Below are positions 6,380 to 25,260 of a stretch of DNA of 64,000 nt, one piece after another. Numbering within the stretch: position 1 is the stretch's first letter; each line of letters starts with the position of its first letter. This DNA comes from Candidatus Omnitrophota bacterium (GTDB taxonomy: Bacteria; Omnitrophota; Gorgyraeia; Duberdicusellales; 4484-171), in the NCBI GenBank assembly GCA_021735655.1, contig JAIPGM010000009.1:4976-68975 (forward strand), in the 5' to 3' direction. Made by a program: the position numbers and the translations under genes. The notes below the pieces were generated by a model, which had not been told where the DNA came from, did no database searches, and saw nothing but the letters and a program-made list of their open reading frames with translations.

Positions 6380-6382
6380 AAA

Positions 6383-6850: not shown

Positions 6851-6863
6851 GCCCCCTCCTTTA

Positions 6864-7229
6864 TCATTTATTACCAAAATGTGAATCTACACTTGGACCT
6901 TGGGTTAGTTTAAATTCCCCCCTTTTATACTTCGCTATCACTTCTTTAATTGTTCCCGATACACCAGCAATCACATCAAGGCCTGCTGCCTGTAAGGTCT
7001 GAAAAGCATTTGGTCCAACATTGCCGGTTAAAATTACTTTTACCTGCTTTTCGGCTGCAAGCTGACCCGATTGAATTCCAGCCCCACCCATACTATCTAT
7101 ATTAGGATTCTTAACTGACTCAAAATCCTCTGATTCGGTATCAGCAATAATAAAATACTGACAACGACCAAAGCGAGGATCAACCGTCGAATCTAGGCTA
7201 TCCCCTTGTGACGTAATACAAATCTTCAT
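6864..7229 (-). CDS. Dinitrogenase FeMo-cofactor biosynthesis family protein (NifX/NafY/NifB-C-terminal-like, PF02579)
   Basis: MKICITSQGDSLDSTVDPRFGRCQYFII. The (D/E)PRFGR(C/A)xxF opening and ~120-aa size are typical of this family. Confidence 0.65.
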   Translation of the reverse strand: MKICITSQGDSLDSTVDPRFGRCQYFIIADTESEDFESVKNPNIDSMGGAGIQSGQLAAEKQVKVILTGNVGPNAFQTLQAAGLDVIAGVSGTIKEVIAKYKRGEFKLTQGPSVDSHFGNK

Positions 7230-7240
7230 AAATTTACCTC

Positions 7241-7642
7241 CTATTCATGCTCACAGTTATCTTCATCAGGATGATCACAAGCTGTCTTTTCTACGCCATA
7301 TCCTTTTCCGGCCCCAGGCTGGCAAAGGCTTTCCCCTCCTTTAAGTGTTCCGGCCGTAGCTTGCTTAACTATTTCATCTACTTTTCCGCTAATCCCCATT
7401 ATTGTTTTTATTCCACTTTCATCAAATAACATTTGAGCCCTTTGCCCCATGCCACCAGCGACAATGGCGTTCACTCCTTTCTCCTTTAAAAACTGAGGTA
7501 AAAACCCCGGGTGATGCCCTGGGTTATCAACCACCTGTTTCCTTATTAGTTTATCACCCTCAAGCTCTACAATAGTAAAGGAAGGACACCGGCCAAAATG
7601 AGCTGATACTAAATCACCATCTGTTGAAATTGCTACTTTCAA
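7241..7642 (-). CDS. Dinitrogenase FeMo-cofactor biosynthesis family protein (second paralog) with Cys/His-rich C-terminal tail
   Basis: MKVAISTDGDLVSAHFGRCPSFTIVEL, the same family start, plus a C-terminal CQPGAGKGYGVEKTACDHPDEDNCEHE tail. Confidence 0.65.
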   Translation of the reverse strand: MKVAISTDGDLVSAHFGRCPSFTIVELEGDKLIRKQVVDNPGHHPGFLPQFLKEKGVNAIVAGGMGQRAQMLFDESGIKTIMGISGKVDEIVKQATAGTLKGGESLCQPGAGKGYGVEKTACDHPDEDNCEHE

Positions 7643-7717
7643 AATTACCCCCTTATTAAAAATTTACCAAACAAGTAAGAATAAAGATATTTCCTTACCC
7701 CTACCTATCTCTTTACA

Positions 7718-8068
7718 CTATTTATTACCTTCAAGTCCAGCATTAGATTCTAATTCCTTAATGCGCTGATTCATAGCTTCAATCTCATCCTGCATCAGCT
7801 TCGCTTCGGCTTTTAACTCAACTGCCTCCTGCTGTGGTGTAAGCCCGGGAACATACGGTAATCCAAAATAAGGATTTCCGTAAGCGTAACCGCCGGCTCT
7901 TCGCCATCCAAAGCCTCTTCCAAGACCCCTTCCTAATCCACGACCTCTGCCAAAAAATCCACCTCTGACCGGACGCTGCGCACTTCCTGCCGGCAATGCA
8001 CAATAGCCTCTTGCCCCACCGGTCATCGAGCCTAACCCTTGAGGACCTGTTCCATCGAAACCTGGCAT
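7718..8068 (-). CDS. DUF5320 family protein
   Basis: MPGFDGTGPQGLGSMTGGARGYCA N-terminal signature, an RG/GRG-rich middle and a C-terminal coiled-coil (AEAKLMQDEIEAMNQRIKELE). Confidence 0.6.
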   Translation of the reverse strand: MPGFDGTGPQGLGSMTGGARGYCALPAGSAQRPVRGGFFGRGRGLGRGLGRGFGWRRAGGYAYGNPYFGLPYVPGLTPQQEAVELKAEAKLMQDEIEAMNQRIKELESNAGLEGNK

Positions 8069-8126
8069 TTAAATCACCTCCATTTTTTGTTAATGATAAT
8101 CATTTTCATTAATATTTTAAAAAAAA

Positions 8127-8609
8127 TTACTCCTCCTTTTTACCTTTACATTTATCACATAACCCATAAAATTGGATAACGTGATCGTCGATTTTAAAGT
8201 TATATTTTTTAGACAATCCTTTTTCTGTCTTCTGTAATAGTTCAATTTCATCTTTAATAAAATCAGTATAGTCAATAACCCTTCCACAATTCCTACATAC
8301 TAAATGATGATGATGATGCCGTTGGCCTTTGGGGCCCTGGTTTAACTCATAGCGTGCTCTTCTATCTCCAAAATCTGATCTAATTACCAAGCCCATTTGA
8401 ACAAGCAATTCAAGCGTACGATACACAGTAGTTAAGCCAACATTGGGATAATCCTTATGAACCTTTATATATACATCCTCAGCACTAACATGTACAGAGG
8501 TTGCACCTAAAACGTCCAAAATTGCCCTTCTCGGAACAGTAAACCTATAACCACATCCTTTGAATTTGCCTTGCCACCAGCTAGGCCCTCTTTTGCATCT
8601 ACCTTGCAC
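8127..8609 (-). CDS. Fur-family metalloregulator (Fur/Zur/PerR)
   Basis: DNA-binding helix TVYRTLELLVQMGL. HHHHHLVCRNCGRV and CDKC metal-site motifs. The track's Met is a GTG start; an AAGGAGGAG RBS lies upstream. The exact start is uncertain. Confidence 0.7.
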   Translation of the reverse strand: MQGRCKRGPSWWQGKFKGCGYRFTVPRRAILDVLGATSVHVSAEDVYIKVHKDYPNVGLTTVYRTLELLVQMGLVIRSDFGDRRARYELNQGPKGQRHHHHHLVCRNCGRVIDYTDFIKDEIELLQKTEKGLSKKYNFKIDDHVIQFYGLCDKCKGKKEE

Positions 8610-11212: not shown

Positions 11213-13021
11213 TTAATTAAAATTTTGTATTATTGAAGCATCGCTCCAGTTATAATTTGTCTCTAAAAGCAAGATAGTCTGAATCAAAGCTAGATGCGAA
11301 TACCCCTGAGGAAAGTTACCGGTCAAACGGCCGGAACTTATTTCCACATCCTCAGAGAAAAGACTAAATTTATTCAGACAGCGTAAAATATTTTTCAGCA
11401 TTTCCCGACTGGTTTTTTCTTCTCCGATCAAATATAAAGAATTTATCATCCAAAAGGTGCAAACGATAAAGGCGTTTTCCGGCTGACCGAATTCATCCTC
11501 TGAAATGTAACGAAAAGTAAAACCGGACTTGGTTAGTTCTTGATATGTTTTTTCCACAGTCTTAATCATTTTCGGATCGCTCTTTTCCAGAAAGCCGTAA
11601 TGTAGCATCAAAAGATTAGCGGCATCTAACTCCTGAGCACCATAACACATCACAAATGACTCGCGAGCCTCATCCCAACCGTTTTCTAGTATATCTTGCT
11701 TGATCTCCGAAGCTACTTTTAACCATTTTTCGGCATTACTAGGCCTTCCAATAAAACTAGCAATCTTTGCAGCCCTATCCATAGCTACCCAACTCATAAC
11801 CTTCGAATGAACATAATGCCTTAATTCCCCCCTACGCTCCCATATTCCATTGTCCGGCTCTCGCCATTTTTTCAACACATTATTTGCTAAATCCCTAACT
11901 ACTGTCCAAATTTCTTCATCTATCGTAGCCTTTCCTCTGCGATTGGTTATAAGGTACGTATAGATAGCCTCAATGAGCTGGCCATAGATATCATTTTGCA
12001 CCTGTCTATAGGCATCGTTACCGATTCGTACAGGCTTAGAACCCTCATAGCCGGCCAGATGATCTAATATTTTCTCGGTCAATAGCCTTTCGCCATTTAT
12101 TCCGTACATAACCGATATATTCTCGTGTTTCAGTAACCTTCGGTTTAATACAAAATTCATATAGCGCTGCGCCGAACGCATATGCCCGATTCTAGTATAT
12201 AAATCTACAATCATTGAGGCATCCCTTATCCAACAATATCGATAGTCCCAGTTCCGATCCTTGCCAATTATCTCCGGCAGCGATGTTGTCGGCGCTGCAA
12301 TAACAGCCCCCGAACGCTGATAGGTAAGAAGCTTGAGGGTGATAGCTGAACGGATAAGTAAATCTTTATACTTTGAGGGAACTTTTGTTCGATATACCCA
12401 ATCCAGCCAGTAAGTCTTTGTCTTCTCGTATTCAATATATATCTTATCCGTATCGATGTCTTGTAGCTTTTCGTGATAAGAAAAAAGCAAAAAAGAAGTG
12501 CCCTTCAATTCCATGGGCTCTGAGCTCATTATTTTATTATAGTCTAAATTACTATATAAATAAAAACTTGCGTATTCACCTTTCTTGGAGGTAATCTTTA
12601 AATGATTATTTTCTAAGACAATCTCGCAATCACTAATGGCATAATTCGGCTTTGGTTTCAACTCAACGATAATTTTTGGATTACCAGAAATAAGCAAAAT
12701 ATCCCGGTGAATCTCCGGTGGACAGTAATACTCGTCTCTTAAAGTAAAAAAACGAGGCATATAATCCCTTAATTCAAAAACCCCATCTTCTGTAGTAAAA
12801 ATGGTCCGAAGGATCGGCGTGTGAACAACATAATGTTGTTCTACTTTTATTATATTCGCAGCGGATATCTTGAAATATCCTCCTTTATCTTGGTCTAGGA
12901 TTTTAGCAAATACCGATGGCGAATCAAAAAAAGGAAAACACAGCCAATCTATACTGCAATCACTAGAAATCAAAGCCGAGCTTGTGCAATTTCCGATAAT
13001 CGCATAATCGTAGTTTTTCAT
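11213..13021 (-). CDS. Glycoside hydrolase family 15 protein (glucoamylase / GH15-type trehalase-like)
   Basis: N-terminus YDYAIIGNCTSSALISSDCSIDWLCFPFFDSPSVFAKILD is typical of bacterial GH15 N-domains. 602 aa with an (alpha/alpha)6 catalytic region containing WIRDAS. Confidence 0.7.
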   Translation of the reverse strand: MKNYDYAIIGNCTSSALISSDCSIDWLCFPFFDSPSVFAKILDQDKGGYFKISAANIIKVEQHYVVHTPILRTIFTTEDGVFELRDYMPRFFTLRDEYYCPPEIHRDILLISGNPKIIVELKPKPNYAISDCEIVLENNHLKITSKKGEYASFYLYSNLDYNKIMSSEPMELKGTSFLLFSYHEKLQDIDTDKIYIEYEKTKTYWLDWVYRTKVPSKYKDLLIRSAITLKLLTYQRSGAVIAAPTTSLPEIIGKDRNWDYRYCWIRDASMIVDLYTRIGHMRSAQRYMNFVLNRRLLKHENISVMYGINGERLLTEKILDHLAGYEGSKPVRIGNDAYRQVQNDIYGQLIEAIYTYLITNRRGKATIDEEIWTVVRDLANNVLKKWREPDNGIWERRGELRHYVHSKVMSWVAMDRAAKIASFIGRPSNAEKWLKVASEIKQDILENGWDEARESFVMCYGAQELDAANLLMLHYGFLEKSDPKMIKTVEKTYQELTKSGFTFRYISEDEFGQPENAFIVCTFWMINSLYLIGEEKTSREMLKNILRCLNKFSLFSEDVEISSGRLTGNFPQGYSHLALIQTILLLETNYNWSDASIIQNFN

Positions 13022-13056
13022 TACCTCACCTTTTTAAATATCATAAAAAAAATAGA

Positions 13057-13680
13057 CTACCTTGGAATCAATAAAGATTCATCAAGTTTTATAATTAATT
13101 CAGTACCTACAGGAAGCTTTATCTCTTTTCGACCTGACAATAAAGCAGCGCTTGCACTCGAAACAACACCAATAGCAAGCCCTTTTTCAGCACCATTCTT
13201 ACCAAGAACTTCTTTTCCGACTAAACTCCCCATAACTCCGCTAGCGCCAATTATGGCTAAATCTTGCGCGGCTTTACCGGGTATTTTAATAACTTTTACG
13301 CCTTCATCAGTATCAAGGCTGGCTACAACAGGAATAATTACTCCGGAAAATAAGACTACCTGATCAAGCAATAAAAGCAAGCTTGCTTTATCGCCTAATT
13401 TTTCAAATTTTGTGGCGCTTTTGACCAAGCCTCTGATTTGTACGCCTTTAGCCAATACAACCCTATCCTTATAATTAAGATCTTCTTTTAATTTAGTAAT
13501 GAAGATATCGCCGCGTTTATTGCTATTAGAACTGAGAGGTGCCCCTAAAACAACGGTGAGGTTAACTCCTTTCTGAATCTGATATCCTTCTTGGGTTTCT
13601 TGTACCTTTTCAACTAATGGCTCACATCCTAACAAAGATAAAACCAAAACTATAGACATTAATCTAGCTAAACTTTTCAT
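13057..13680 (-). CDS. Lipoprotein, hypothetical
   Basis: Signal peptide MKSLARLMSIVLVLSLLGC (lipobox LLGC). Overlaps the upstream MFS gene by 4 nt. Confidence 0.5.
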   Translation of the reverse strand: MKSLARLMSIVLVLSLLGCEPLVEKVQETQEGYQIQKGVNLTVVLGAPLSSNSNKRGDIFITKLKEDLNYKDRVVLAKGVQIRGLVKSATKFEKLGDKASLLLLLDQVVLFSGVIIPVVASLDTDEGVKVIKIPGKAAQDLAIIGASGVMGSLVGKEVLGKNGAEKGLAIGVVSSASAALLSGRKEIKLPVGTELIIKLDESLLIPR

Positions 13681-15176
13681 TCTTTATCGCCTCCTCCGGT
13701 AACTTTTCCTATAAACTTAACTCCTCTGCTAATAAAAGAATAAGGATAAGATGCTATTTGGAATAATCCTGCCCCTGAAGAAAGACTTCTTATCGGCCTT
13801 TTAATAGCATCGATAAATTCGGCCCGAACCGCTTCATCATCTATAACACCTTCTTCCTTAACCATTGTCAACCGATGAAGGGAATACAGGCCGACAAGAA
13901 AAGCCAAAGCAAAAAAGAAATCCCAATGCTGAAAATTAAGTGCCTGGAAAATCAACTCTCTGCCAGGAGAAGACCACTTAAAAACTAAAGATAAATTACG
14001 GGCAGCAAAGAAATCAGCAAACTTACCTCCCAAAATAGGCGCTATGCCGGCAGCAAAGGAATTAACCAAAGTATTGGTAGCTAAATAGGCAGTTGCCTGA
14101 CCTTTCGGGGCAAGCTTTAATCCGATATTACCGGAAGCTATGGCTATGCCGGCGGTAGCAATGCCCATTACTATATGGATGACTACTAAAATTGGCAAAG
14201 TTAAAAAGTATTTCTCCGGCATAGTGGTAAATGTCCAAGCAAGAATGCTAAACATAAATAAAGGGCCGCTTACCGCTAAAACTGACTTATTGCTAAACCG
14301 ATCAGCCCACTTACCCCATAAAGAAAGAAAAGTAAAGTTAAATACCTGACTGACTATACTTAAAAACACTATCATCGACATACCTAAACCCAGCTTAGTC
14401 AACATATATACGGTAAAAAAAGGTGCCGCCAGGTTAACCGCAAAACTCCAAGAACCTAAAAAAAACATTAAACGCCTAAAATTTATATCCTTAAACGGCT
14501 GAGTGAGAAGTTTTAAAAAATCTGCCTTTTCCGACTGCATGGCCGGTTCAGGCGTCCGGGATAAAAAGATAACACCAACTATCCCGATAAGGAAAGCAAC
14601 CGCAAAAAGTCCGGAATAAGCATATATTTCAACATCAGGGAAACTCCTTTTCCAAAAATCAAGAAACATACTTGCCAAAATGCTGACAAAAACTCCTAAA
14701 AATGTTGCAACCCTTAATCTCTCGGAAAAAAATGTTCCCATCTGATTTTCAGGAACTAAATCCCGCATCCAAGAATTCCAGGCACAACCGCCGATGCCTC
14801 CGAAACCGGAAGAAAACAAAACCGCGACAATAAGAACTGCCAGCCCTACTGAGGGTACAAACAAAAACGGACTCAAAGCAATCAATAAAAAACCAAACCG
14901 ACCGATTAAGGCCGAATAAATCGCAACCGTTTTTCGGCTACGGATTTTTTCAATCAAAAAAATTGCCGGAATCTGAACAAACTGCATCAAGGCCGGAATT
15001 GCGGCAATAAGCCCAATTTGAAAATTTGAAGCTCCCAACTTTACGGCAATAGCAACCAGGAAAACACCACCAGTCAAAACCCCCATCAAATGGCTCATTA
15101 CACCATCGGCAACAACTGATCTTAGCCCGATTTTAAGCTCTTTTTCGCTAATTTGCTCTTGAGTTTTAAATCTCAT
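13677..15176 (-). CDS. MFS transporter
   Basis: 499 aa with about 12-14 hydrophobic segments. The composition and loop pattern are typical of the major facilitator superfamily. Confidence 0.6.
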   Translation of the reverse strand: MRFKTQEQISEKELKIGLRSVVADGVMSHLMGVLTGGVFLVAIAVKLGASNFQIGLIAAIPALMQFVQIPAIFLIEKIRSRKTVAIYSALIGRFGFLLIALSPFLFVPSVGLAVLIVAVLFSSGFGGIGGCAWNSWMRDLVPENQMGTFFSERLRVATFLGVFVSILASMFLDFWKRSFPDVEIYAYSGLFAVAFLIGIVGVIFLSRTPEPAMQSEKADFLKLLTQPFKDINFRRLMFFLGSWSFAVNLAAPFFTVYMLTKLGLGMSMIVFLSIVSQVFNFTFLSLWGKWADRFSNKSVLAVSGPLFMFSILAWTFTTMPEKYFLTLPILVVIHIVMGIATAGIAIASGNIGLKLAPKGQATAYLATNTLVNSFAAGIAPILGGKFADFFAARNLSLVFKWSSPGRELIFQALNFQHWDFFFALAFLVGLYSLHRLTMVKEEGVIDDEAVRAEFIDAIKRPIRSLSSGAGLFQIASYPYSFISRGVKFIGKVTGGGDKE

Positions 15177-15901
15177 ATTTTATTTACATTACTATATAAT
15201 TTATCTTTAATATTCTCCAGCTTACCAAAACAAATAAGTCTATCACCAAGAATTACTTTTGTACTTGCCGAAGGATTAGGAATTACCTCGTCACCTCTCT
15301 CAATAGCCAAAATATTTATACCTTCTTTACGCAAAGCTGTATCAAGCAGTGATTTATCTAATATCGAGCTGTCCTTATAAACTTCTATACTCGATACACC
15401 GTAGCCTCCGGTAGCAACTAGAAGTTCTTCAAAAGATACTGCTTTTATTATATCTCTTTTAACAATCCTGGCCCGTAAGGCCTTAGTAATCCTTTGGGTA
15501 AGCCTAGAGTGAGTAAATATACGATAGGTAAAATAAATCCCTAAGCAGACAATAACTAAATTAATCCAAGGCAGAAGGCGATAAGGAATAATTAAATCTA
15601 AAAAAGGTATTTTAAATTGTGGTAATAACATATTCGGCCGTAAAGTATTGGCAAAGGTAGCAATCATAGTAACCAGCCCGGCATTACCTAATATAATCAA
15701 AGCCGAAGCTATGCGCCGCCGCTGGGGGTTACCCACCACTAGCTCCGACTCTTTAGTAGTAAACCCAGTTCCCGAAAAACAAGATAATGCCTGAAACTTA
15801 GCCAACGACCATTCAAGACCGGTAAGCTGAAAAGCAATAGCCCCTATCCTGACTGCTACAAAAGATGCAACCACAACTACCAAAAATAACATTAAGTTCA
15901 T
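15173..15901 (-). CDS. Membrane protein with C-terminal TrkA-C (RCK_C) domain
   Basis: N-terminal hydrophobic helices. C-terminal ILAIERGDEVIPNPSASTKVILGDRLICFGKLENI matches TrkA-C. 4-nt overlap with the MFS gene. Confidence 0.5.
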   Translation of the reverse strand: MNLMLFLVVVVASFVAVRIGAIAFQLTGLEWSLAKFQALSCFSGTGFTTKESELVVGNPQRRRIASALIILGNAGLVTMIATFANTLRPNMLLPQFKIPFLDLIIPYRLLPWINLVIVCLGIYFTYRIFTHSRLTQRITKALRARIVKRDIIKAVSFEELLVATGGYGVSSIEVYKDSSILDKSLLDTALRKEGINILAIERGDEVIPNPSASTKVILGDRLICFGKLENIKDKLYSNVNKI

Positions 15902-15914
15902 GTTATCCTCCTGA

Positions 15915-16997
15915 TTAAATCCACTTCTTGCGCCGAAAATAAATAAGCATAGTTAAGGCAATTAAAATCATAATTCCCCAAGCACCAAAATAGCCGAATT
16001 TCCAGCTAAGCTCAGGCATATTCCAAGGTGATATCTTAGGATCAAAATTCATGCCGTAAATACCAGCCACGAAAGTGATCGGGATAAAAATGGTAGCAAT
16101 TATAGTCAAAACCTTCATAACCTCATTCATCTTATTACTTACGCCAGACATATATATATCAAGCATCCCGGAAACCATATCCCGATAAGTCTCGACGGTA
16201 TCGATAACTTGAATGGTATGATCATAGAGATCACGCAAAAATATACGGGTCGGTTTTGCTATCAGCTTTGATTCGCTACGTTCCAAAGCATTAACTACCT
16301 CACGCAAAGGCCAGACTGATTTGCGCAAGAAAATAATGTCCTGTTTTGAGCGATGAATCATTTGCAAAGTCTTAGGTACAGGATTAGCGATAATTTTCTC
16401 TTCCATCTCCTCTATTTTTTCACCAATCTTCTCCAATATCGAAAAATAATTATCTACCACTGAATCTAGAAGGCTATAGGCAAGGTAATCAGCGCCCATT
16501 TTTCTAATTCTACCCTTGGCCTTACGAATCCGCTCGCGGATCGGGTTAAATACGTCACCTTCTTTTTCCTGCAGAGAAATAACAAAGTTATTCCCAAAAA
16601 TTAAACTAACCTGTTCCGAAACAACTTCTTTGCTCTTCTCCTTAAACATAAACATCTTTAAAACCACAAAAATATACTTATCAAAATCTTCATACTTAGG
16701 CCTCTGGCCAGTGTTAACAATATCCTCCATAGTCAAGGGGTGCATTTCAAACCGCTCCCCTAACTTAGTAATTATTTCTGTATCGTGCAAACCGTCGATA
16801 TTCACCCAGGTAACCGTGGGGGTATCTTTGAAAGGAAAAACTTCTTCAATGCTCTTAACTTCTTTTTCTTGAAAGTTCACCGAATCATAATCAATTACCG
16901 ATATCTTCACTTTATCAATTTTTCTTTCCCCCACGTGAACTAAATCACCGGGAATATGTCCGGCAGTTTTAGATAATTTTTTTAGTAATTTAGCCAT
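15915..16997 (-). CDS. corA: CorA-family Mg2+/Co2+ transporter
   Basis: C-terminal TM pair with the YGMNF (GMN) signature. 360 aa. Confidence 0.8.
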   Translation of the reverse strand: MAKLLKKLSKTAGHIPGDLVHVGERKIDKVKISVIDYDSVNFQEKEVKSIEEVFPFKDTPTVTWVNIDGLHDTEIITKLGERFEMHPLTMEDIVNTGQRPKYEDFDKYIFVVLKMFMFKEKSKEVVSEQVSLIFGNNFVISLQEKEGDVFNPIRERIRKAKGRIRKMGADYLAYSLLDSVVDNYFSILEKIGEKIEEMEEKIIANPVPKTLQMIHRSKQDIIFLRKSVWPLREVVNALERSESKLIAKPTRIFLRDLYDHTIQVIDTVETYRDMVSGMLDIYMSGVSNKMNEVMKVLTIIATIFIPITFVAGIYGMNFDPKISPWNMPELSWKFGYFGAWGIMILIALTMLIYFRRKKWI

Positions 16998-17021
16998 AAG
17001 TCCCTCCCAAAAATTTAATCT

Positions 17022-17711
17022 TCAGTTACGCCTTATTCCGACCATAATAAACAAATCACCCCTGTGATCACAGCAAGGACACATTCGGCCTAAACCTTTT
17101 AATCTTAGTTTTTGGCCATTCTTCGTACCTGGATTTATCTTTAAAGTAATCGCTCTACCATCAGTCATTTTAAACTTTACTTCACCACCGCGATTAGCGA
17201 TATTTACCGGAACATTTAAATTAGCGAGGGTGTCGGTATCAACCTTCTGAAAAGAACCGGCATTATTAAAGTCATACGTTGTATATTTACCACCAGCATG
17301 ACTGCCGGCTGAATGCACATCTTTAAAAATATCAGCTAAATCATCAAAAAAGAAATACTGACTGCTACTTCTTCCTGGCCTTGATTTCTTAGCGCCGATA
17401 TCCTGGAAATGTTTCATTAAATCATCAAAATCAAATCCAGTCTGAGAAGCAAAATCCCCGGAGCCAGGGCCGCTCCTGAACGTATAGGTCCCTTTTTTAT
17501 AATCATCATATTCTTTGCGTTTTTTAAGGTCTCCGAGAACATAATAAGCGGCAGCGACATCCTTAAACTTTTCTTCGCATTCTTTCTTCTTCTCTTCCGG
17601 GCAACGGTCAGGATGATACTTAAAAGCAAGCTTTCGGTATGCCGATTTTATCTCTCCCTGGCTGGCCCGCCGATTAACTCCCAAAATTGTGTAGTAATCT
17701 TTGGTATTCAT
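17022..17711 (-). CDS. J-domain (DnaJ-like) protein with atypical C-terminal region
   Basis: [32 protein letters not shown], with the HPD motif. No canonical CxxCxGxG zinc-finger repeats. Confidence 0.7.
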
Positions 17712-17721
17712 TAGCTATATT

Positions 17722-17922
17722 CTAAGTTTTCCGATTGGAAGATCTTCTTCCGATAAAGAAACCCAGGGAAAAACCGATGACTATGACTAGCGGCAACAAG
17801 ATAATCCGTGACATGCTTAATTTCCAGAATAAAAATCTCAAAGTAACTACTTGCGTATTCTGCAGTAAAATAATTAATAATAAACACCCTAGCACTAATA
17901 GTATTATCCTCTTTAGTTTCAT
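17722..17922 (-). CDS. Small membrane protein (LapA/DUF1049-like)
   Basis: 66 aa, two hydrophobic helices, basic C-terminus. Confidence 0.4.
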   Translation of the reverse strand: MKLKRIILLVLGCLLLIILLQNTQVVTLRFLFWKLSMSRIILLPLVIVIGFSLGFFIGRRSSNRKT

Positions 17923-17950
17923 TATTGCTACCTCCTTAATAATGGCGATT

Positions 17951-19198
17951 TTATGTCTGTCTCAAAAATAGCTGAAATGACCTAGGTGGTAAATTAAATG
18001 AATAGTTATCAGTTACTATATTGAACTTTTTCTTGTTATTGTCAATGTTTATGAATTTTCCCTGTATTGTCCTGGAATCAACCTCAACCTGGATTGATTC
18101 GGTACACTTATTAAATACCGCGATACCGTCACCTTCCCGGCTAAATATAAGATGGCATTTTCCGGCTGAAACAATCTGCATAGTCTTCCCCGATAGAAGA
18201 TTGTGAAATTTTATCATCTTTAGTAAATCCTTGCTCTTGTAAGCATCTTTCCACTGATCAGAATGCATTCCACCTTCTTTTCCTTTATCAGAATAAACTA
18301 ACGGGACTCCGCCATCTCTGCCAATAATATAAGCATAAGCAATCTTTTCATCTATTCTATTTGGATCGTTAGAATCAAAGATAAGTTGTCTCATCTCCTG
18401 ATTATTAGGGATATCATGAGTTATGGCAAAAGTGAGACTTCGGAAACGGTCCAGCTGATCCGGTTCTTTTAAAGCTTCCAGACTACCCTCAATACTTAAG
18501 GCCTTACGCATTGAATAGAAAAGATTAAAATCATAGACTGAAAAGTCAACTCTCTTTAAAAAATCTTTTAAGAAAATTCTATGTAACTCAGGAATTATCT
18601 CAGCAAAAATATATAAACCTCGGGTTATCTCCTCGGTAAAAACTTTTTTAATATGTTCTATCGACATATGCTTAGCCGCATCAATCCGAAACCCGTCAGC
18701 ACCTATTTTTTTTAAAGCCCTAAGGTATTCTTTTTGGGCAGAAATCACCCTTTGACTGTCAGGATCTAAATCCGACAGGCCGGTATCAGTCTTGTGGCTA
18801 AAATCCTCAGCTGAAAAGATATCCTTTGATAAATCACCATATAGACGATTTCTAGCAAAAACTGGATCTTGCTGATACTGGTCTAGAATATCTTTACCAG
18901 GAAAATCCAAATTATCATCTCTACGATGAGCCATGTGGTTAAAGACTACGTCGATATAGATTTTTAAATTATTTTTTTTTAAAGTTTGAATCAAAGAGGT
19001 TAATTCTTGCAGATTGCCCAAAGGCGAGAATATAACTCGGTAATCTAAAGGTTGATAGCGATAAAACCACTCTTTACCCTGACTAAAGGTAGGCGGCGAA
19101 ATAAGTATGGCGGAATAACCAAAGCTGCTGATCTCTTTTGCTTGTTTCTCTATTTCCTTAAATTTCCAGTTAAAAGCATGTAAAATGACATTACCCAT
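17951..19198 (-). CDS. Alpha-amylase family glycoside hydrolase (GH13)
   Basis: YIDVVFNHMA (region I) and GFRIDAAKHM (region II, catalytic Asp). 415 aa. Confidence 0.8.
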   Translation of the reverse strand: MGNVILHAFNWKFKEIEKQAKEISSFGYSAILISPPTFSQGKEWFYRYQPLDYRVIFSPLGNLQELTSLIQTLKKNNLKIYIDVVFNHMAHRRDDNLDFPGKDILDQYQQDPVFARNRLYGDLSKDIFSAEDFSHKTDTGLSDLDPDSQRVISAQKEYLRALKKIGADGFRIDAAKHMSIEHIKKVFTEEITRGLYIFAEIIPELHRIFLKDFLKRVDFSVYDFNLFYSMRKALSIEGSLEALKEPDQLDRFRSLTFAITHDIPNNQEMRQLIFDSNDPNRIDEKIAYAYIIGRDGGVPLVYSDKGKEGGMHSDQWKDAYKSKDLLKMIKFHNLLSGKTMQIVSAGKCHLIFSREGDGIAVFNKCTESIQVEVDSRTIQGKFINIDNNKKKFNIVTDNYSFNLPPRSFQLFLRQT

Positions 19199-19339: not shown

Positions 19340-19915
19340 CTATTTTCTTTTTAAAAACGAACTATTATGTTTTCGTAAAAATCTTCTATGCGGATTGCCT
19401 AGAGGGAACAGATTATTTTCAGTTACAAACTGCATATCTTCTATGGTATAAAAAGCATTAGGATTGAATTTCTTTATTATTTGTATAACCCTTTTTAAAT
19501 TCTTGCGTTTAACCACACTAAAAATAACTTTAACCGGTCCATCTTTACCTTGAGCATTAATACTGGTGACGCCATAACCCTGCTTACTCATAAACTGCAC
19601 TAAATCTACGGCATCTTTCTTAGTTACTATTTGAATCATAAGATTACCCATTAGAATTCGTCTTTCTATAGAAATGCCCACAAAGTTTCCCATACCAAAC
19701 CCAGCGGCATAAGCGATGTAATGGCTTACACTGCTTAGATTCTTCATTATCTGAGTAATAGCTATAAGCCAAATTAAAACTTCAAAAAAACCCAATACGG
19801 CTGACAAGAATCTTATCCCCCGGGAAACAAATATAATCCTGATAGTGCCGATAGTAACATCGATAATGCGGGCTAGAAAAATCAAAAACGGAATTAAGAT
19901 ATAATTTATTTCCAT
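19340..19915 (-). CDS. UPF0316/DUF2179 family membrane protein
   Basis: LARIIDVTIGTIRIIFVSRG N-terminal membrane region and a C-terminal DUF2179-like soluble domain. Last gene of the KamA operon. Confidence 0.5.
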   Translation of the reverse strand: MEINYILIPFLIFLARIIDVTIGTIRIIFVSRGIRFLSAVLGFFEVLIWLIAITQIMKNLSSVSHYIAYAAGFGMGNFVGISIERRILMGNLMIQIVTKKDAVDLVQFMSKQGYGVTSINAQGKDGPVKVIFSVVKRKNLKRVIQIIKKFNPNAFYTIEDMQFVTENNLFPLGNPHRRFLRKHNSSFLKRK

Positions 19916-19927: not shown

Positions 19928-21004
19928 TTAGCGAAAAATCTTTAATATTTTATTACGCCAGTTATTATAAAAATAATGTGCTTTGGGCCCAGCCTGCTTT
20001 AGCAATTCCGGAGAACTACCTAGCCCCCTTATTTCAATCATTGCATCCTTAAGAAAAATTGAATATCTTTTGCTGATTTTTTTATTATTAATAAACCGCT
20101 GGGCAGCATCAACGATGTTATTAGCAGTAAACTGAGCGATCTGATCGGGTACACCACTAGGAGTTTCAGATTGAGAAGTCATATCGCATTGGTCGTTAAC
20201 GTAATCTATGACTAAAAAACGCTTTTTTCCCTGTTTTTCATCAATAGCTATTTCACTTGAAAACCAAGCCATCCGGGTTATCGAAGCAATTTTAGAAACT
20301 ATCTTGGCTAAGGGGAAAAGACTATGCTTATTAAATTCTTCATAACCTATATGTTCATAACGATTAGCCTGATCATCCCACCAGCAAGGTATTATAGTAT
20401 CAAATACATTAAACCCTCGAAACCAAGCACGTTTTCCTTCTATTTGGATAGGAACAATCTTCTCCTGTAGTAAAAAATTATCGCCTCGGTCAAACTTCCG
20501 AGCTTGAGCAATTTCTCGAATTGTGCCCCGAGCATCACGAATAACACCTAATTGACCATAGCCAAGCGCCGGCTTTATTACAAAAGGAACCCCTAGTTTC
20601 TTCTTCTCCTCATCGGGAAGCCTAAAAGTAGTCGGTTCCCAGTTACGAACAACAACTGTATAGGGAGCCATAATCCCGGCATTGATTAACTCATAGTGCA
20701 TTGCTGATTTATCAATTGCACTCTGGGCCCGATCAGGATCATTAATAACCACCCCACCGCTATCTTTTACATCATAGCAAATACGAGTGTAGATATCGCC
20801 TTTTTTATTATAGGTAGCCTCGGTGTCCAGTAAAGCCTTGATTACAAGCTTTCTTTGATCAAGATCCCGAGCCACTTGCCTTACATTATCTTTAGATATC
20901 CAAAGGAAAGAAAGTTTTCTTTGCTTGCAAGCGGCCTGGAGTAAAACAACAAACCTCTCCTTGATATTACCACTCCAAGTCAAACCAAAATCGTATCTTT
21001 TCAT
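19928..21004 (-). CDS. ATP-grasp domain protein (YheC/YheD- or RimK-like ligase)
   Basis: GVPFVIKPALGYGQLGVIRDARG and downstream FLLQEKIVP are consistent with ATP-grasp B and C subdomains. 358 aa. Confidence 0.55.
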   Translation of the reverse strand: MKRYDFGLTWSGNIKERFVVLLQAACKQRKLSFLWISKDNVRQVARDLDQRKLVIKALLDTEATYNKKGDIYTRICYDVKDSGGVVINDPDRAQSAIDKSAMHYELINAGIMAPYTVVVRNWEPTTFRLPDEEKKKLGVPFVIKPALGYGQLGVIRDARGTIREIAQARKFDRGDNFLLQEKIVPIQIEGKRAWFRGFNVFDTIIPCWWDDQANRYEHIGYEEFNKHSLFPLAKIVSKIASITRMAWFSSEIAIDEKQGKKRFLVIDYVNDQCDMTSQSETPSGVPDQIAQFTANNIVDAAQRFINNKKISKRYSIFLKDAMIEIRGLGSSPELLKQAGPKAHYFYNNWRNKILKIFR

Positions 21005-21013: not shown

Positions 21014-21934
21014 TTAAACAACTGCACTTTCGGCAACTGTTAATGACAGCCTATCAGCATCGATAGTTACCGGAAGTCCCAAAGGCAAGGTAACATGAAG
21101 CCCACCGCGCAAACGCAAATGCCCGGAAGGAAATCCATACAATACCGGGATATCCTGTCCTTTAAATAACTTTTCTATTAGTTTACGTAAATCATGGTCT
21201 TTACCTGAAGAGTCAAGCATTCTGCCTAAAAGTAACCCCTTGATATTTTTAAACTTCCCTGAACGCTTGAGACGAAAAAAATAATTTCTAATGGTATTAA
21301 AGTCTTCGTTGACGTCCTCTAAAAACAAAATGCTGCCGGCAGTCCTTATTCGGTAAGACTTACCTATTGAATCAATGATTAAAGACATATTGCCGCCAAC
21401 CAGCTTACCGGTAGCTACTCCCAGCTTAAAAGCAATCAGCTGGGGGAATTTCAATTCTCCCAAAGGCTTAGTTTCACTAAAAAGCCTTTGCAGATATTCA
21501 AGAGTCAGCTGATGCATTCCTTGATAAATCTCCCCGGAAACTATCGGCCCGTGAAAAACAACCATCTTAGCCAATTTTTGCAAATAGAGTAAGATAATAG
21601 TTATATCACTGTACCCGAGAAAAATTTTGGGATTTTTTCTAATAGTTTTCTCATCTAGGTAGGGTATAATTTCGGCTGAACCGTAACCGGCTTCAGCACA
21701 AAAAATAGCTCTCACTTCTTTGTCGGCAAACATCCGATTTATCTGCATGGCCCGCTGACGATCATGATCGGGCTTAGACCATTTCGGATCAAAAATTACT
21801 CGTTCATATTTAACTTTATAGCCTAGCTCTTTAAGCAGTTCAACGCCGCTTTTAAATTTATCCACATCAAAAGAACTTGCCGGAGCTACTATACCGATAG
21901 TATCACCAAGTTCTAATTTTTGAGGCTTACGCAT
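21014..21934 (-). CDS. LD-carboxypeptidase (peptidase S66, LdcA/MccF family)
   Basis: GDTIGIVAPASSFD N-terminal signature. The C-terminal FPSGHLRLRGG region contains the catalytic His. Confidence 0.7.
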   Translation of the reverse strand: MRKPQKLELGDTIGIVAPASSFDVDKFKSGVELLKELGYKVKYERVIFDPKWSKPDHDRQRAMQINRMFADKEVRAIFCAEAGYGSAEIIPYLDEKTIRKNPKIFLGYSDITIILLYLQKLAKMVVFHGPIVSGEIYQGMHQLTLEYLQRLFSETKPLGELKFPQLIAFKLGVATGKLVGGNMSLIIDSIGKSYRIRTAGSILFLEDVNEDFNTIRNYFFRLKRSGKFKNIKGLLLGRMLDSSGKDHDLRKLIEKLFKGQDIPVLYGFPSGHLRLRGGLHVTLPLGLPVTIDADRLSLTVAESAVV

Positions 21935-21936: not shown

Positions 21937-24132
21937 TTACCTATCAAAGCTAAAACCATAACGATTAAATGAATCTTGCAAAATCAACCTTATTAAACTA
22001 TTGTAACTGTTACCTTTCAATTTGTAAAGAATTGGTAAATCACCATACGAAGATGAGAGACCAGGCAAAGGGTTAATATCTATTATCTTAGGTTTGTTCT
22101 GAGTATCAAGGCGAAAATCTATACGCGCCATATCCTTTAATTCTAATTCTTTATATGCCTTTATAGCATAAAATTCAATTATTTTCTGAATATTTTTTAA
22201 AATACTCTCCTGTGGCTCATATTTAACTTTATTTTGCCAATCCTGTTTGATCTCAAGAGAATAGAGAAAGTTCTTGCAAGCCTTATCCCTAGGCACTATT
22301 TTCATCATTCCTAGAATTTGTGGAACTTCATTGCCGTAAACTCCTACGGTAATCTCATCTCTCTCCAAAAACTCTTCTATCAAGGCCGGCTGTTCATATT
22401 TCGAAATTATTTCCTCTACTCTCTTTTTTAAATCATCAAAGTTGCTGACTAAAGAATTAAGAAAAATTCCCTTTGAAGAACCTTCCCAACGCGGCTTTAC
22501 AAGAAATGACCCGTTTCCTCCAAAAATATTTCCTAAATTTTCTAAATCTTTGACATCCTTAATCATAGCCATCTCTGGAACCAGAATATTTGCTGATTTT
22601 AATAATCTATTGGTTAGGTATTTATCTAGAGTGATTCCTAAGGCGACTGGATCTGATCCCGAATAGGGTATATCTAAGCTTTCAAGGATTGCCGGAACTT
22701 GCGATTCACGCCCCCTCTTATCCCCTCTGCCTTCGGCGATATTAAAAACGAAATCCGGCCTTTGACTCAACAATCGTTTTAGAAAATTATCATCCTGCTC
22801 AAAAATAACTACCTTGAAACCGTATTTTTCTATTTCTTTCTTTATGCTTTCAATGGTCTCAATTTCGTCGTATTCCTCATGGTTCTCGCCAGCATCCTTA
22901 TTTTTAAGATTAAATGTTATACCTATTGTATTCACTGAGCGGACTTTTTTAGAATTAGTTATTGCTTCTGGCTGAACAGGAGTATCCTGATAAAAAAATA
23001 TTTCATCTTTATAATTTTTTAATATCATTCCTCGGTCAGAATCTGAAACCAAATAATCAGGACCAAAGGGGATTTTACCTTTCCCGCCTATAGCATCAAT
23101 AACAAAAGTCGGTACACACATACCGCTAGTAAACCCCTGCATTTTTTTGATAATTTCTCTACCTTGCCAAGGTGATGTTCGAAAATGAGATGTCCCGCTA
23201 ACCGGATCACACTGAAATAAATAATATGGCCTAACCCTTATCGCTTGTAGTCTCTGACATAAATCCCTCATCACTTGCAAGTTATCATTCACCCCCTTAA
23301 GCAATACTGACTGATTGCTTACAGGAATACCTATTTTTTGTAGTTTTCTGCAAGCTAAAGCTGCCTGAGGGGTAATTTCTCTAGGGTGGTTGAACTGGAC
23401 ATTAACCCAAACATTGTCATATTTTTTTAGCATCTCACAAAGCCGATCATCTATCCGCCGAGGGAAAACAACCGGAGTACGCGTACCGATACGGACAACC
23501 TCAATATTACTAAAAGAATGAATTTTTGAAAGTATAGCTTCTAGCCGTTCTGTAGGTAAAGTTAAAGGGTCTCCTCCGGAAACTATTATCTCCCTAATTT
23601 TCGGATTCCGGCCCACATAATTTAAGGCTCTATCTATATCTTCTAGGGTTGGTTCATTTATTTTTTTGCTCCATATTCTTTTTCTTGTGCAGTGGCGGCA
23701 ATACATAAAGCAACGGTTAGTTACTAAAAGCAGTGCCCGATCAGGATAGCGGTGTACTAAGCAATCTAAGGGAGAACTCTTTTCCTCAGCTAAAGGATCC
23801 TTGCTTTCAAAGGAACCTTGGCTAAGCTCATCAAAATTAGGTATGCATTGTTTTCCAATCGGATCGCAGTTATCAGAGGTATTTTCAATTAAGGAAAAGT
23901 AGTAAAAAGGAATTTTCAAATGGTAAGCATCAGAAACTTTCTTTAATCGACAAATCTGTTCTTTATCTAAAGGTAGGTATCGAGAAAGGTCTTCAATGTT
24001 GTTAATAAACTCTTTAGGATCATAATACTCTCTCCCAACATCAAGAGTTTTGTTGTGATAATTTACAGTTTCATAACTAGGTCCGCCAGGTTCCTCTTCA
24101 AGGAAAGTTTCAGCATCCAAGTTATTGCTCAT
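21937..24132 (-). CDS. Fusion protein: lysine 2,3-aminomutase-like radical SAM domain (KamA/EpmB family) plus C-terminal D-Ala-D-Ala-ligase-like ATP-grasp domain
   Basis: LLLVTNRCFMYCRHCTRKR (KamA CxxxCxxC context), SGGDPL and PYYLFQCDPVSG (KamA PLP/Zn region). From about residue 420, a Ddl-like fold: central-domain glycine loop at GNGSFLVKPRWEGSSKGI and C-terminal RIDFRLDTQNKPKIIDINPLPGLS. GAGGAGG RBS upstream. Confidence 0.7.
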   Translation of the reverse strand: MSNNLDAETFLEEEPGGPSYETVNYHNKTLDVGREYYDPKEFINNIEDLSRYLPLDKEQICRLKKVSDAYHLKIPFYYFSLIENTSDNCDPIGKQCIPNFDELSQGSFESKDPLAEEKSSPLDCLVHRYPDRALLLVTNRCFMYCRHCTRKRIWSKKINEPTLEDIDRALNYVGRNPKIREIIVSGGDPLTLPTERLEAILSKIHSFSNIEVVRIGTRTPVVFPRRIDDRLCEMLKKYDNVWVNVQFNHPREITPQAALACRKLQKIGIPVSNQSVLLKGVNDNLQVMRDLCQRLQAIRVRPYYLFQCDPVSGTSHFRTSPWQGREIIKKMQGFTSGMCVPTFVIDAIGGKGKIPFGPDYLVSDSDRGMILKNYKDEIFFYQDTPVQPEAITNSKKVRSVNTIGITFNLKNKDAGENHEEYDEIETIESIKKEIEKYGFKVVIFEQDDNFLKRLLSQRPDFVFNIAEGRGDKRGRESQVPAILESLDIPYSGSDPVALGITLDKYLTNRLLKSANILVPEMAMIKDVKDLENLGNIFGGNGSFLVKPRWEGSSKGIFLNSLVSNFDDLKKRVEEIISKYEQPALIEEFLERDEITVGVYGNEVPQILGMMKIVPRDKACKNFLYSLEIKQDWQNKVKYEPQESILKNIQKIIEFYAIKAYKELELKDMARIDFRLDTQNKPKIIDINPLPGLSSSYGDLPILYKLKGNSYNSLIRLILQDSFNRYGFSFDR

Positions 24133-24202: not shown

Positions 24203-24532
24203 CTAATAATCTTGGTCAGGATAAACTTCTTCGCTGTCATCATCGTATCCTAACTCTTCATCATAAATATACTCATAGCTCAAAGCCCGCAAACCTTCCT
24301 GGCTATTTTCGGCTTTAATTTCCACATTATCTCCAAGCTCAAAATAAGCCTCTTCTACTAACTCTTTAGTAGTTAGCACTTTTTGACCACCAACAGTAAT
24401 ATAGCTACCGTCCTCGGAAATCTGCTCTATCTTACCCTTAAGCAACACTGAATCATCTTCCTGAGCAAAAGCAAAAGTTGTCCCAGCCAAAATCATAACC
24501 AACAACAATGTTAAATATTTTTTCATGACCAT
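24203..24532 (-). CDS. Small secreted protein with acidic C-terminal tail
   Basis: Signal peptide MVMKKYLTLLLVMILAGTTFAFAQ. C-terminus YDEELGYDDDSEEVYPDQDY. Overlaps the LysW-like gene by 10 nt. Confidence 0.45.
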   Translation of the reverse strand: MVMKKYLTLLLVMILAGTTFAFAQEDDSVLLKGKIEQISEDGSYITVGGQKVLTTKELVEEAYFELGDNVEIKAENSQEGLRALSYEYIYDEELGYDDDSEEVYPDQDY

Positions 24533-24750
24533 TCCTCCCTTTCTCCTTTTCCGTTAAAATCTTCTTCCTCCTCACTGTAATCCACGTAATCATCCCAGGT
24601 GCCGATTTCTTCCTCTAGCTCTACCGGATTAAGCTTGGTTAATTTAAGCTCTGCAAAACAACCCTGACAATTAAGGATATCGGCAATCCCCAAACCTTCT
24701 TCAATCTCAACATTTTCTTTACAAACCGGACATTTGGTTTTTTTAACCAT
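24523..24750 (-). CDS. LysW/ArgW-like zinc-ribbon amino-group-carrier-protein homolog with extended acidic tail
   Basis: CPVCKENVEIEEGLGIADILNCQGCFAELKLTKLNPVELEEEIGTW aligns with the CPxCG...E...LGE..xCxxCGAELEV..LDPL.LE....EDW core of LysW. A further 22-aa acidic tail ends in REEWS. GGAGG RBS 5 nt upstream. Confidence 0.55.
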   Translation of the reverse strand: MVKKTKCPVCKENVEIEEGLGIADILNCQGCFAELKLTKLNPVELEEEIGTWDDYVDYSEEEEDFNGKGEREEWS

Positions 24751-24864: not shown

Positions 24865-25203
24865 TTATCTTTTAGTTCGACGAGTTGCTTTTTTATCACT
24901 GGCGAAAGTTTTAGTAGCTCTAAACTGAGAAACAATAAAATCGGTAATTCGACATTGAGGAGAATTAAGATCCTTATTGCGCCGGTAAAAAACCGAGTTG
25001 CCCTTTCTCCGGTCAAAAACTAGCTTAAGCAGGCGCAACCTCATTAGATGCTTGGAAATCGTAGGCTGGCTTACTTTTAAAACAACACATATATCTTTAA
25101 CGGTAAGTTCTTTCTCATCCAGCACATTTATTATCCTTAGACGCGTATCATCGGAGCAGGCTTTAAATATCTGGCGTAATGATTTTAGATTTACTTTTCG
25201 CAT
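24865..25203 (-). CDS. ArsR/SmtB-family transcriptional regulator
   Basis: Start reassigned to MRKVN. Helix-turn-helix LTVKDICVVLKVSQPTISKHLMRLRLLKLV is typical of ArsR/SmtB. Confidence 0.65.
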   Translation of the reverse strand: MRKVNLKSLRQIFKACSDDTRLRIINVLDEKELTVKDICVVLKVSQPTISKHLMRLRLLKLVFDRRKGNSVFYRRNKDLNSPQCRITDFIVSQFRATKTFASDKKATRRTKR

Positions 25204-25221
25204 ATAACATTCCTTTATTGG

Positions 25222-25260
25222 TATATACGTATATATATCATCGGTTAAAAAGGTTGTCAA
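25222..25260 (-). promoter_or_regulatory. Sigma70-like promoter with palindromic operator candidate upstream of the ArsR gene
   Basis: On the minus strand: TTGACA (25260..25255), a 17-nt spacer, then TATATA (25237..25232). The perfect 14-nt palindrome TATATACGTATATA (25222..25235) overlaps the -10 and the predicted +1. Confidence 0.4.

Follow-up and report, generated by a model that had tools for sequence, protein, structure and literature searches.

LysW-type amino-group carrier proteins (AmCPs) follow, to our knowledge, a single logic, in which the substrate is tethered to a terminal glutamate and remodelled by a kinase, a reductase and an aminotransferase. They are known from the biosynthesis of lysine and arginine and from a small number of metabolite clusters in actinobacteria and Serratia, and LysW itself has an EDWGE-type ending. 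In T. kodakarensis the substrate is carried on the C-terminal residue E53 of LysW (PMC12998189), and the enzymes of AmCP pathways are reported to bind the acidic carrier through positive patches (PMC11726168). Here we describe a LysW-like protein, LysWl, and the gene cassette around it in a 64,000-nucleotide stretch (the window) of contig JAIPGM010000009.1 from a Candidatus Omnitrophota bacterium. We know of almost no biochemistry on record for the host phylum. LysWl combines the ribbon of LysW with a different tail and a different set of enzymes, suggesting that the ribbon has been reused in an undescribed carrier or tail-modification system and not in lysine biosynthesis.

The zinc ribbon of LysWl is a true homologue of the LysW ribbon by both sequence profile and fold. 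The open reading frame (ORF) recognized in a preliminary description of this DNA is present exactly at 24523..24750 on the minus strand with the sequence given there, MVKKTKCPVCKENVEIEEGLGIADILNCQGCFAELKLTKLNPVELEEEIGTWDDYVDYSEEEEDFNGKGEREEWS; it has 75 codons, and a strong Shine-Dalgarno sequence (AAAGGAGGT) lies 5 nucleotides (nt) upstream of its ATG. Residues 1-48 comprise a four-cysteine zinc ribbon (CPVC...CQGC) and the linker LNPVELEE. LysWl passes the gathering score of the Pfam family Zn_ribbon_LysW (PF21344), reaching 28.6 bits against 27 (E 1.1e-6). When LysWl alone is compared with the sequences of the PDB, the best matches are the LysW chains 5k2m_E (E 2.3e-4) and 3wwl_A, and a profile of 50 family members finds the same two chains at E 7e-12 and 1.4e-10, with the match spanning the whole ribbon and the L-x-P-L-x-L/V-E linker. 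A C2H2-finger match ranked above them in the profile table is an artefact in which six weak repeats were summed. In an AlphaFold2 model the ribbon has a predicted local distance difference test (pLDDT) score of about 90, and residues 50-75 have scores of 51-69. The top six Foldseek matches of this model in the PDB are all LysW chains with a probability of 1.00, target TM-scores of 0.67-0.87 and identities of 23-43 %, and a sharp drop follows. The LysW-like ribbon proposed in the preliminary description is therefore well founded, and both profiles and fold place the ribbon with LysW instead of an unrelated zinc-ribbon family. An identical protein is on record as "hypothetical" in a metagenome-assembled genome of Candidatus Omnitrophica. 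A metagenome scan with LysWl gave one weak match and added no information.

The homology of the ribbon does not extend to the identity of the whole protein. Comparison with LysW, which had been proposed as a check, confirms the ribbon, but the curated whole-protein models stay far under their thresholds: TIGR01206 (lysW) scores 20.6 bits against a cut-off of 53.2, and NF041070 (LysW/ArgW) scores 19.5 bits against 75. LysWl has neither a terminal Glu nor an EDWGE-like ending. No LysZ-, LysY-, LysJ- or LysK-like genes were found among the profile-scanned genes of the window or the Pfam-labelled genes of related loci. Fold and charge agree with membership of the LysW/ArgW family, but because LysWl fails on the C-terminal Glu, on the curated models and on the LysZ/Y/J/K context, it is not filed as LysW. 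It is classed as LysW-like, with a mode of action that probably resembles that of LysW or of RimK.

The extended acidic tail is a trait of the family and is not peculiar to LysWl. An exhaustive profile search of 1.84 billion representative proteins, with relatives kept at E ≤ 1e-3, produced a family of at least 132 representative clusters. Most members have 60-90 amino acids and consist of a ribbon followed by a long tail (12-39 residues; 26 % Asp, 23 % Glu and 7 % Tyr), so that the extension described at first as atypical is the norm. The C-terminal residue varies among Y, E, N, S, F, W, Q, I and others, LysWl itself ending in ...EEWS, and canonical ...DWGE endings (P0226, P0244) are seen only near the bottom of the list of family matches. 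Lys, Ser and Thr are sparse in the tails, and none occupies a conserved position. The first aromatic residue lies 8-13 residues past the linker proline and is followed by acidic positions in 61 of 105 members, which is a loose tendency. In LysWl this distance is +10 (W52); in T. thermophilus LysW the Trp is at +13. Several proteins (P0126, P0134, P0136, P0164, P0171, P0192 and others) carry two or three LysW-type ribbons in 120-212 amino acids, with an "E-L-D-W"-like linker after each ribbon, and these tandem proteins may be multi-site scaffolds.

Part of the tail of LysWl is not conserved and results from read-through into the ribosome-binding site of the next gene. The preliminary description was right that LysWl has additional acidic residues in place of an EDWGE ending; these number 23 past W52 and not 22. 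Residues 49-66 (approximately) form the conserved acidic and aromatic tail EIGTWDDYVDYSEEEEDFN, which is predicted from the model to be disordered. Residues 67-75 (GKGEREEWS) are not conserved, and their last codons, AGG GAG GAA TGG TCA TGA, hold the Shine-Dalgarno sequence of the following gene, p109, and an ATGA start/stop overlap. In an alignment of the DNA with that of P0003, a relative that is 74 % identical and is encoded at a related locus (L001), TGA replaces GGA and stops the protein at ...EEEEDFN, and the bases downstream of this stop are still homologous to the window. This shows that the final nine residues of LysWl are read-through and that the conserved tail ends at ...EEEEDFN. 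The extension is thus conserved up to that point, while about a third of it belongs to the translation signals of p109. LysWl does not have the canonical terminal Glu; a tether, if there is one, must therefore be at another site than in LysW, as had been suggested.

The cassette encodes a ligase, AG358, that the preliminary description did not mention. Of the solved structures, those closest to it are ArgX and LysX in complex with LysW, together with RimK, which ranks among the top three; graspetide ligase structures score below all of these. AG358 has no Pfam match and only weak NCBIfam matches, of which the best are LysX, MptN and RimK, and on the LysX model, which has a cut-off of 276, it reaches 22 bits. 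Its homologues number more than 1000; they are well conserved and found mostly in Omnitrophota, with some in Elusimicrobiota and Margulisiibacteriota. Considering the charge of the whole proteins, AG358 is basic (isoelectric point 9.5, net charge +14.8), as is the S66 peptidase encoded upstream of it (9.55, +12), and LysWl is strongly acidic (4.16, -13.5).

The genes of the cassette all lie on one strand, in the order ArsR, LysWl, p109, KamA-Ddl, S66, AG358 and DUF2179 from upstream to downstream (Table 1). The intergenic gaps are short and hold no terminator-like site; the scan for promoters and terminators performed at chance level and is uninformative about an operon. A PADLOC search with the cassette enzymes and small proteins gave no match to a defence system, and ArsR gave only generic winged helix-turn-helix matches.

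Table 1. The LysWl cassette: position of each feature in the window and basis of its assignment.
Feature	Position	Strand	Basis
ArsR/SmtB-family winged-helix regulator	24865..25260	minus	HTH_5 E 7e-12; NF033788 73.6 bits (cut-off 55)
LysWl, LysW-like protein, 75 amino acids	24523..24750	minus	ORF and sequence; Pfam PF21344; AlphaFold2/Foldseek
p109 small protein	24203..24532	minus	Signal peptide; beta-rich DUF5666/ExtJ-like domain; acidic Y/D/E tail
KamA-Ddl fusion, 731 amino acids	21937-24132	minus	KamA residues 1-420; Ddl-like residues 421-731
KamA domain, radical S-adenosylmethionine (SAM)/pyridoxal phosphate (PLP), lysine-2,3-aminomutase-like	22873..24132	minus	TIGR00238 294.7 bits (cut-off 199)
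Ddl-like ATP-grasp ligase domain	21937..22872	minus	Dala_Dala_lig_C E 4.8e-28
S66 serine peptidase (LD-carboxypeptidase/MccF family)	21014..21934	minus	Peptidase_S66 E 1e-32; S66C E 8e-25
AG358, divergent ATP-grasp ligase, probably of the LysX/ArgX/RimK clade	19928..21004	minus	Closest solved structures
DUF5698/DUF2179 (YitT-like) membrane protein	19340..19915	minus	Pfam and NCBIfam matches; 12 nt downstream of AG358

The enzymes between p109 and AG358 are an aminomutase, a second ligase and a peptidase. The KamA domain scores 425.6 bits on the model of AblA-type lysine-2,3-aminomutases, under the cut-off of 525, and matches 2a5h_A at E 2.8e-106. It keeps the CxxxCxxC motif (CFMYCRHC), the PLP-binding lysine (GGKGK) and the equivalents of both Asp residues (QCD and FVIDA) that we take to bind the epsilon-ammonium group of lysine, D293 and D330 of 2A5H. 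The domain is the predicted source of beta-lysine. The Ddl-like domain scores 137 bits or less on the NCBIfam Ddl models, which have cut-offs of 243 or more; its best match to a Ddl in the PDB has an E-value of 5.8e-17, and its orthologues in other cassettes are only about 40 % identical. A housekeeping D-Ala-D-Ala ligase was considered for this domain and rejected because the curated Ddl models failed, and it is regarded as a paralogue. The best PDB matches of the S66 peptidase are MccF (E 7e-29) and LdcA (E 1e-22), with the GYSD, FLED and SGH motifs of the Ser-Glu-His triad aligned. Both of its Pfam domains pass their cut-offs, and it does not reach that of the LdcA equivalog (98 bits against 378).

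The remaining members of the cassette are a probable exported protein, a regulator and a possible membrane component. The gene next to LysWl does encode a small protein with an acidic tail, as had been described, and this protein, p109, carries a conserved N-terminal signal peptide as well. Its true start is probably the ATG at 24526, which forms the ATGA overlap with the stop codon of LysWl; from the sequence it is predicted to be translationally coupled to LysWl and to be secreted or periplasmic. The net charge of mature p109 is -19. Its matches to DUF5666 (E 1e-4) and ExtJ (E 1e-6) are weak and below cut-off, and no relative of solved structure was found by sequence search. The three parts of the protein, signal peptide, domain and acidic tail, are all retained by homologues at four related loci (L008, L013, L018 and L021). 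ArsR lies upstream of LysWl, an arrangement kept in L001, L008, L013, L018, L021 and L095. On inspection of its sequence it lacks the classical metal-site motifs, namely CxC in helix 3 and the His/Asp site in helix 5. A metal system of the SmtB/metallothionein kind was rejected because these motifs are absent and a single structural zinc site is not metallothionein-like; it is kept only within the non-covalent alternative discussed below. The DUF5698/DUF2179 protein may, with low confidence, be a member of the cassette, for example an exporter or sensor. A protein of this kind is also found inside the cassettes of L021 (7128-7709) and L024 (6236-6805).

LysWl genes recur beside AG358 and its partner enzymes in related genomes. 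The sample consisted of 80 genome loci around AG358 homologues, 35 of the Omnitrophota type and 45 with distant homologues, and 10 kb on each side was scored by tblastn with each cassette protein and by a hidden Markov model of the family run on all small ORFs. Six of the 35 Omnitrophota-type loci have LysWl, in every case within 4 kb of AG358, and none of the 45 loci with distant homologues has it. The S66 gene is adjacent to AG358 in 17 of the 35. The full cassette is present in the window, L001, L013 and L018, and the LysWl proteins are 72 % identical to that of the window in L001 and 43-56 % in L013 and L018. The pairing of LysWl with p109 is kept in L001, L008, L013, L018, L021, L093 and L094/95. 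In L018 there are two copies of LysWl (6003-6158 and 6175-6393), a tail-less copy of 51 amino acids directly preceding a tailed one. Locus L021 has three copies (6069-6302, 6343-6552 and 11375-11671) in the order ArsR, two LysWl, p109, DUF2179, a PurD/GARS-like ATP-grasp ligase, S66, AG358 and, directly downstream, the third LysWl. LysWl ends 9 nt before AG358 in L040 and lies 1.4 kb upstream of it in L041, where the order is a 109-amino-acid ORF, LysWl, a PurD-like ligase and AG358. Locus L038 begins with KamA and a pair of Ddl-like genes, which lie on the opposite strand, and these are followed by S66, AG358 and, directly downstream, LysWl. In L096, LysWl is directly upstream of a KamA-Ddl fusion, which is followed by a second Ddl-like ligase and a GNAT gene; no p109, S66 or AG358 was found in the 7 kb covered.

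The position held by KamA-Ddl is variable, and it is always filled by another ATP-grasp amidoligase. The ligase may be Ddl-like, and a PurD/GARS-like enzyme of 430 amino acids replaces KamA-Ddl in L021 (7723-9015) and L041 (8709-10001), which implies that variants of the cassette do not share one amine or acyl partner. In L024 a 636-amino-acid fusion of a SAM-methyltransferase with a Ddl-like domain (4303-6213) lies upstream of DUF2179, BipA, S66 and AG358, and no LysW-like gene was detected at this locus. KamA and Ddl are fused in the window, L001 and L096 and are separate adjacent genes in L013, L018, L019, L022 and L038, which argues for functional coupling between them. The linkage has exceptions. 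In one assembly LysWl-p109 (L093) and KamA-Ddl-S66-AG358 (L022) are on different contigs, and an explanation by a single cassette split at a contig break was rejected, as L093 runs on into a tRNA gene. Overall the system is modular: ArsR, LysWl and p109 form one module, and one or more ATP-grasp ligases (with or without KamA) followed by S66 and AG358 form the other, and the two are often but not always joined. Free-standing LysW-like genes on two unrelated contigs are next to PilZ-domain genes (L009, 8549-9334; L011, 3544-3915), and L009 also has a GGDEF gene; the PilZ neighbours could be a coincidence or a link to cyclic di-GMP.

The interpretation that we favour, while stopping short of calling it probable, is that LysWl is a LysW-type scaffold whose tail is loaded by AG358, in this cassette probably with beta-lysine, and unloaded by the S66 peptidase. 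An acidic LysW-like ribbon and tail, a basic ligase probably of the LysX/ArgX/RimK clade and the repeated, independently arranged adjacency of their genes are most simply explained if LysWl is the substrate of AG358. LysWl would act as a zinc-ribbon docking module with a flexible polyacidic tail. AG358 would dock on the acidic ribbon and tail, like ArgX and LysX on LysW, activate a tail carboxylate as an acyl-phosphate and join it to an amine. The C-terminus varies within the family and here consists in part of read-through, so a terminal Glu is a less probable choice for this carboxylate than the side chain of an Asp or Glu close to the conserved W/Y-D-D-Y segment; the tether of LysW is also a side-chain (gamma) carboxylate. 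The amine in the window cassette would most likely be beta-lysine, made from lysine by the KamA domain and passed straight to the fused Ddl-like ligase, which would add or extend it. Cleavage of the unusual amide would then fall to the basic S66 carboxypeptidase, which would free the product and restore the scaffold, the role that LysK has for LysW, and ArsR would control expression. The analysis establishes that the ribbon is homologous to LysW and shares its fold, and it establishes the fold class of AG358, intact catalytic motifs in KamA and S66, recurrent gene linkage and the complementary charges of AG358 and S66 on one side and LysWl on the other; from these we infer an amino-group carrier role for LysWl with physical interaction, covalent loading, the amine and tether site proposed above, and release by S66. 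A more specific proposal, which we regard as speculative and on the whole unlikely, is that LysWl represents a new class of ribosomally encoded scaffold in Omnitrophota and related uncultured phyla, on which AG358 and the Ddl- or PurD-like ligases would build beta-lysine amides at internal Asp and Glu residues of the tail; the outcome could be a beta-lysyl peptide that is set free or a tail decorated in the manner of cyanophycin, with S66 releasing or erasing the additions.

Several observations weigh against loading of the tail by AG358. Most S66-AG358 pairs, and the AG358 genes that stand alone, have no LysWl in the 10 kb around them, which is the case in 29 of the 35 Omnitrophota-type loci. 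Relatives further removed in the family occur singly, in surroundings that have nothing in common with the cassette (L009, L010, L011 and the P0219 locus). LysWl is linked most tightly to ArsR and p109 and not to an enzyme, and in L094/95 this trio occurs by itself. A fixed internal tether motif was sought in the tails of 105 family members, and none is conserved. KamA requires a free alpha-amino group, so it could not act on an alpha-N-tethered substrate as in the LysW pathway. The secreted p109 does not suit a cytoplasmic ligation scheme, and the role of its similar tail is unexplained. Finally, all of the evidence is computational.

The same genes can be read in other ways, of which the closest is modification of the tail as an end in itself. 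AG358 and the Ddl- or PurD-like ligases would then add Glu, beta-Lys or other residues to the C-terminus or side chains of the LysWl tail, and perhaps of p109 before export, in the manner of RimK and S6 or of TTLL enzymes and tubulin; this would tune charge or interactions, S66 would be the eraser, and the modified protein would be the end product, with no metabolite released. The ranking of RimK among the nearest structures of AG358 agrees with this, and S6 is extended by RimK at its acidic C-terminus with as many as about 15 Glu residues (PMC4431377). Long tails of variable length without a fixed tether residue would suit distributive modification, p109 bears a tail of the same kind, and the conserved pairing of S66 with AG358 resembles that of a writer and an eraser. 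However, there is no sign of what the modified protein would do, the variable C-terminal residue, here a product of read-through, argues against a specific alpha-carboxylate site, and the ribbon is homologous to a carrier protein and not to a known end-product substrate. We consider this explanation unlikely but serious. Somewhat more doubtful is the possibility that LysWl is not covalently modified at all but is a small acidic zinc-ribbon regulator or binding partner, which would act with p109 under ArsR in envelope, ion or stress physiology or would be a docking or regulatory subunit of the ligases; adjacency to the enzymes would then reflect co-regulation or non-covalent regulation. It would account for the fact that the ATGA-coupled unit of ArsR, LysWl and p109 is the most conserved one and can occur without enzymes, for the free-standing family members, two of them beside PilZ genes, and for the many S66-AG358 pairs that have no LysWl nearby. 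It does not account for L038, L040 and L096, where LysWl adjoins AG358 or KamA-Ddl in the absence of ArsR and p109, and the closest structural relatives of AG358 load LysW covalently. The missing metal-site motifs of ArsR weaken a reading in terms of metal homeostasis.

Two further explanations can largely be set aside. A small ORF beside ATP-grasp and peptidase genes could encode the precursor of a graspetide, a peptide made on the ribosome and modified after translation (RiPP), in which case the tail would be cross-linked or decorated by the ATP-grasp enzymes and the mature peptide excised by the peptidase. This is very improbable, given that LysX, ArgX and RimK outscore the graspetide ligases as structural matches of AG358, that the tail has no conserved core motif of Thr, Ser or Lys with Asp or Glu, that a folded zinc ribbon is atypical as a leader peptide, and that S66 enzymes are carboxypeptidase-like and are not leader peptidases. 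A canonical LysW or ArgW, serving lysine or arginine biosynthesis by way of alpha-aminoadipate or glutamate, would agree with the Pfam match, with the homology to LysW structures and with the label "LysW" that some databases give to family members. This function is rejected as almost certainly wrong: there is no terminal Glu, both NCBIfam equivalogs fail, no LysZ/Y/J/K-like genes were found among the genes scanned in the window or labelled by Pfam in related loci, and AG358 is far under the cut-off of the LysX model.

The loading of a LysW-type scaffold that we favour has its closest parallel in the LysW/ArgW and LysX/ArgX systems of Thermus, Sulfolobus/Sulfurisphaera and Thermococcus. These share with the cassette a four-cysteine ribbon, an L-x-P-L-x-L-E linker, an acidic flexible extension, a co-encoded ATP-grasp ligase, probably of the same structural clade, and basic partner enzymes. 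Both gene sets also include a carboxypeptidase-type hydrolase, although it belongs to family S66 here and to M20 (LysK) there. In contrast to LysW and ArgW, the tail of LysWl is longer, variable in length and ending, and free of a terminal Glu; LysZ, LysY and LysJ were not found among the genes scanned; KamA, a Ddl- or PurD-like ligase, the secreted p109 and ArsR are additional; and LysWl and AG358 stay far under the thresholds of the curated LysW and LysX models. The AmCP clusters for secondary metabolites likewise have a LysW homologue outside primary lysine and arginine metabolism, together with a dedicated ligase and tailoring enzymes (PMC11726168). However, they keep the C-terminal attachment and the logic of kinase, reductase and aminotransferase, and there is no report of one that has a 2,3-aminomutase, a Ddl-like ligase or an S66 peptidase.

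Other described systems resemble parts of the cassette. RimK and S6 pair a RimK-clade ATP-grasp enzyme with a small protein that has an acidic C-terminal tail, a combination that AG358 and LysWl may share, the action on the tail being a proposal in the present case; here the putative substrate is a LysW-type ribbon and not S6, an aminomutase and other ligases are present, and there is no conserved terminal run of Glu. The disordered, acidic, Tyr-containing tails of tubulin, with TTL/TTLL enzymes and carboxypeptidases, offer the same logic of writer and eraser, a resemblance that is functional only. Pearlins are similar in concept, as a small molecule is assembled at the C-terminus of a ribosomal scaffold, released by a peptidase and the scaffold recycled (PMC9303977), but their loading is carried out by tRNA-dependent PEARL (LanB-like) enzymes instead of ATP-grasp ligases, and the scaffolds are unrelated. 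In the AblA/AblB system, which makes the osmolyte N-epsilon-acetyl-beta-lysine, the aminomutase is of the type whose model the KamA domain matches best. The GNAT acetyltransferase that follows KamA-Ddl in L096 (3664-4146) recalls the AblA/AblB pair. The window cassette, on the other hand, has no acetyltransferase, Abl systems have no ATP-grasp, S66 or LysW-like protein, and the AblA cut-off is missed. In the literature covered, outside of which lies the 2009 amidoligase survey of Iyer and Aravind, no description was found of a LysW-like protein accompanied by an aminomutase, by a Ddl-like ligase or by an S66 peptidase.

The rest of the window is coded on the same strand. A greedy map of non-overlapping ORFs of at least 90 amino acids (positions 1-64000) gives about 58 genes, all on the minus strand, and no tRNA genes or Rfam families were found across the 64 kb. 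Downstream of the cassette (11213-19198, minus) are genes for a GH15/trehalase-like glycosidase, an MFS transporter, TrkA_C, CorA, a DnaJ-like protein and an alpha-amylase-family protein; the contig of L001 also has CorA and a mechanosensitive channel downstream, so that the context has a flavour of ion and osmotic stress. An iron and Fe-S-flavoured group occupies 1312-8609 (minus). It includes Fur (8127-8609), DUF2099, two DUF5320 proteins (7718-8068 and 6383-6601), two MinD/ParA-type proteins with 4Fe-4S ferredoxin inserts (2314-3213 and 4906-5763) and a pyridine-nucleotide disulphide oxidoreductase (3176-4522). An ORF of 3657 amino acids with Laminin_G_3 and DUF2341 domains (49044-60017, minus) adjoins a POTRA outer-membrane transporter of the ShlB/FhaC type (60271-62001, minus), and the two look like a two-partner-secretion pair with a giant exoprotein.

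The cassette bears on the annotation of a protein family and on the range of carrier chemistry. Even if the tail of LysWl is not loaded, annotation is corrected, in that these proteins are not the LysW of lysine biosynthesis. If the more specific proposal of a new scaffold class is true, the cassette would be an AmCP-like system whose tether site, chemistry and enzyme set are unlike those of every characterised LysW pathway. Loading of the tail would mean that internal acidic residues and beta-amino acids come within the reach of carrier or tail-modification chemistry. It would also provide functions for two families: the conserved "hypothetical" ATP-grasp proteins, of which there are more than 1000, and the small proteins that currently bear the label "hypothetical" or, misleadingly, "LysW".

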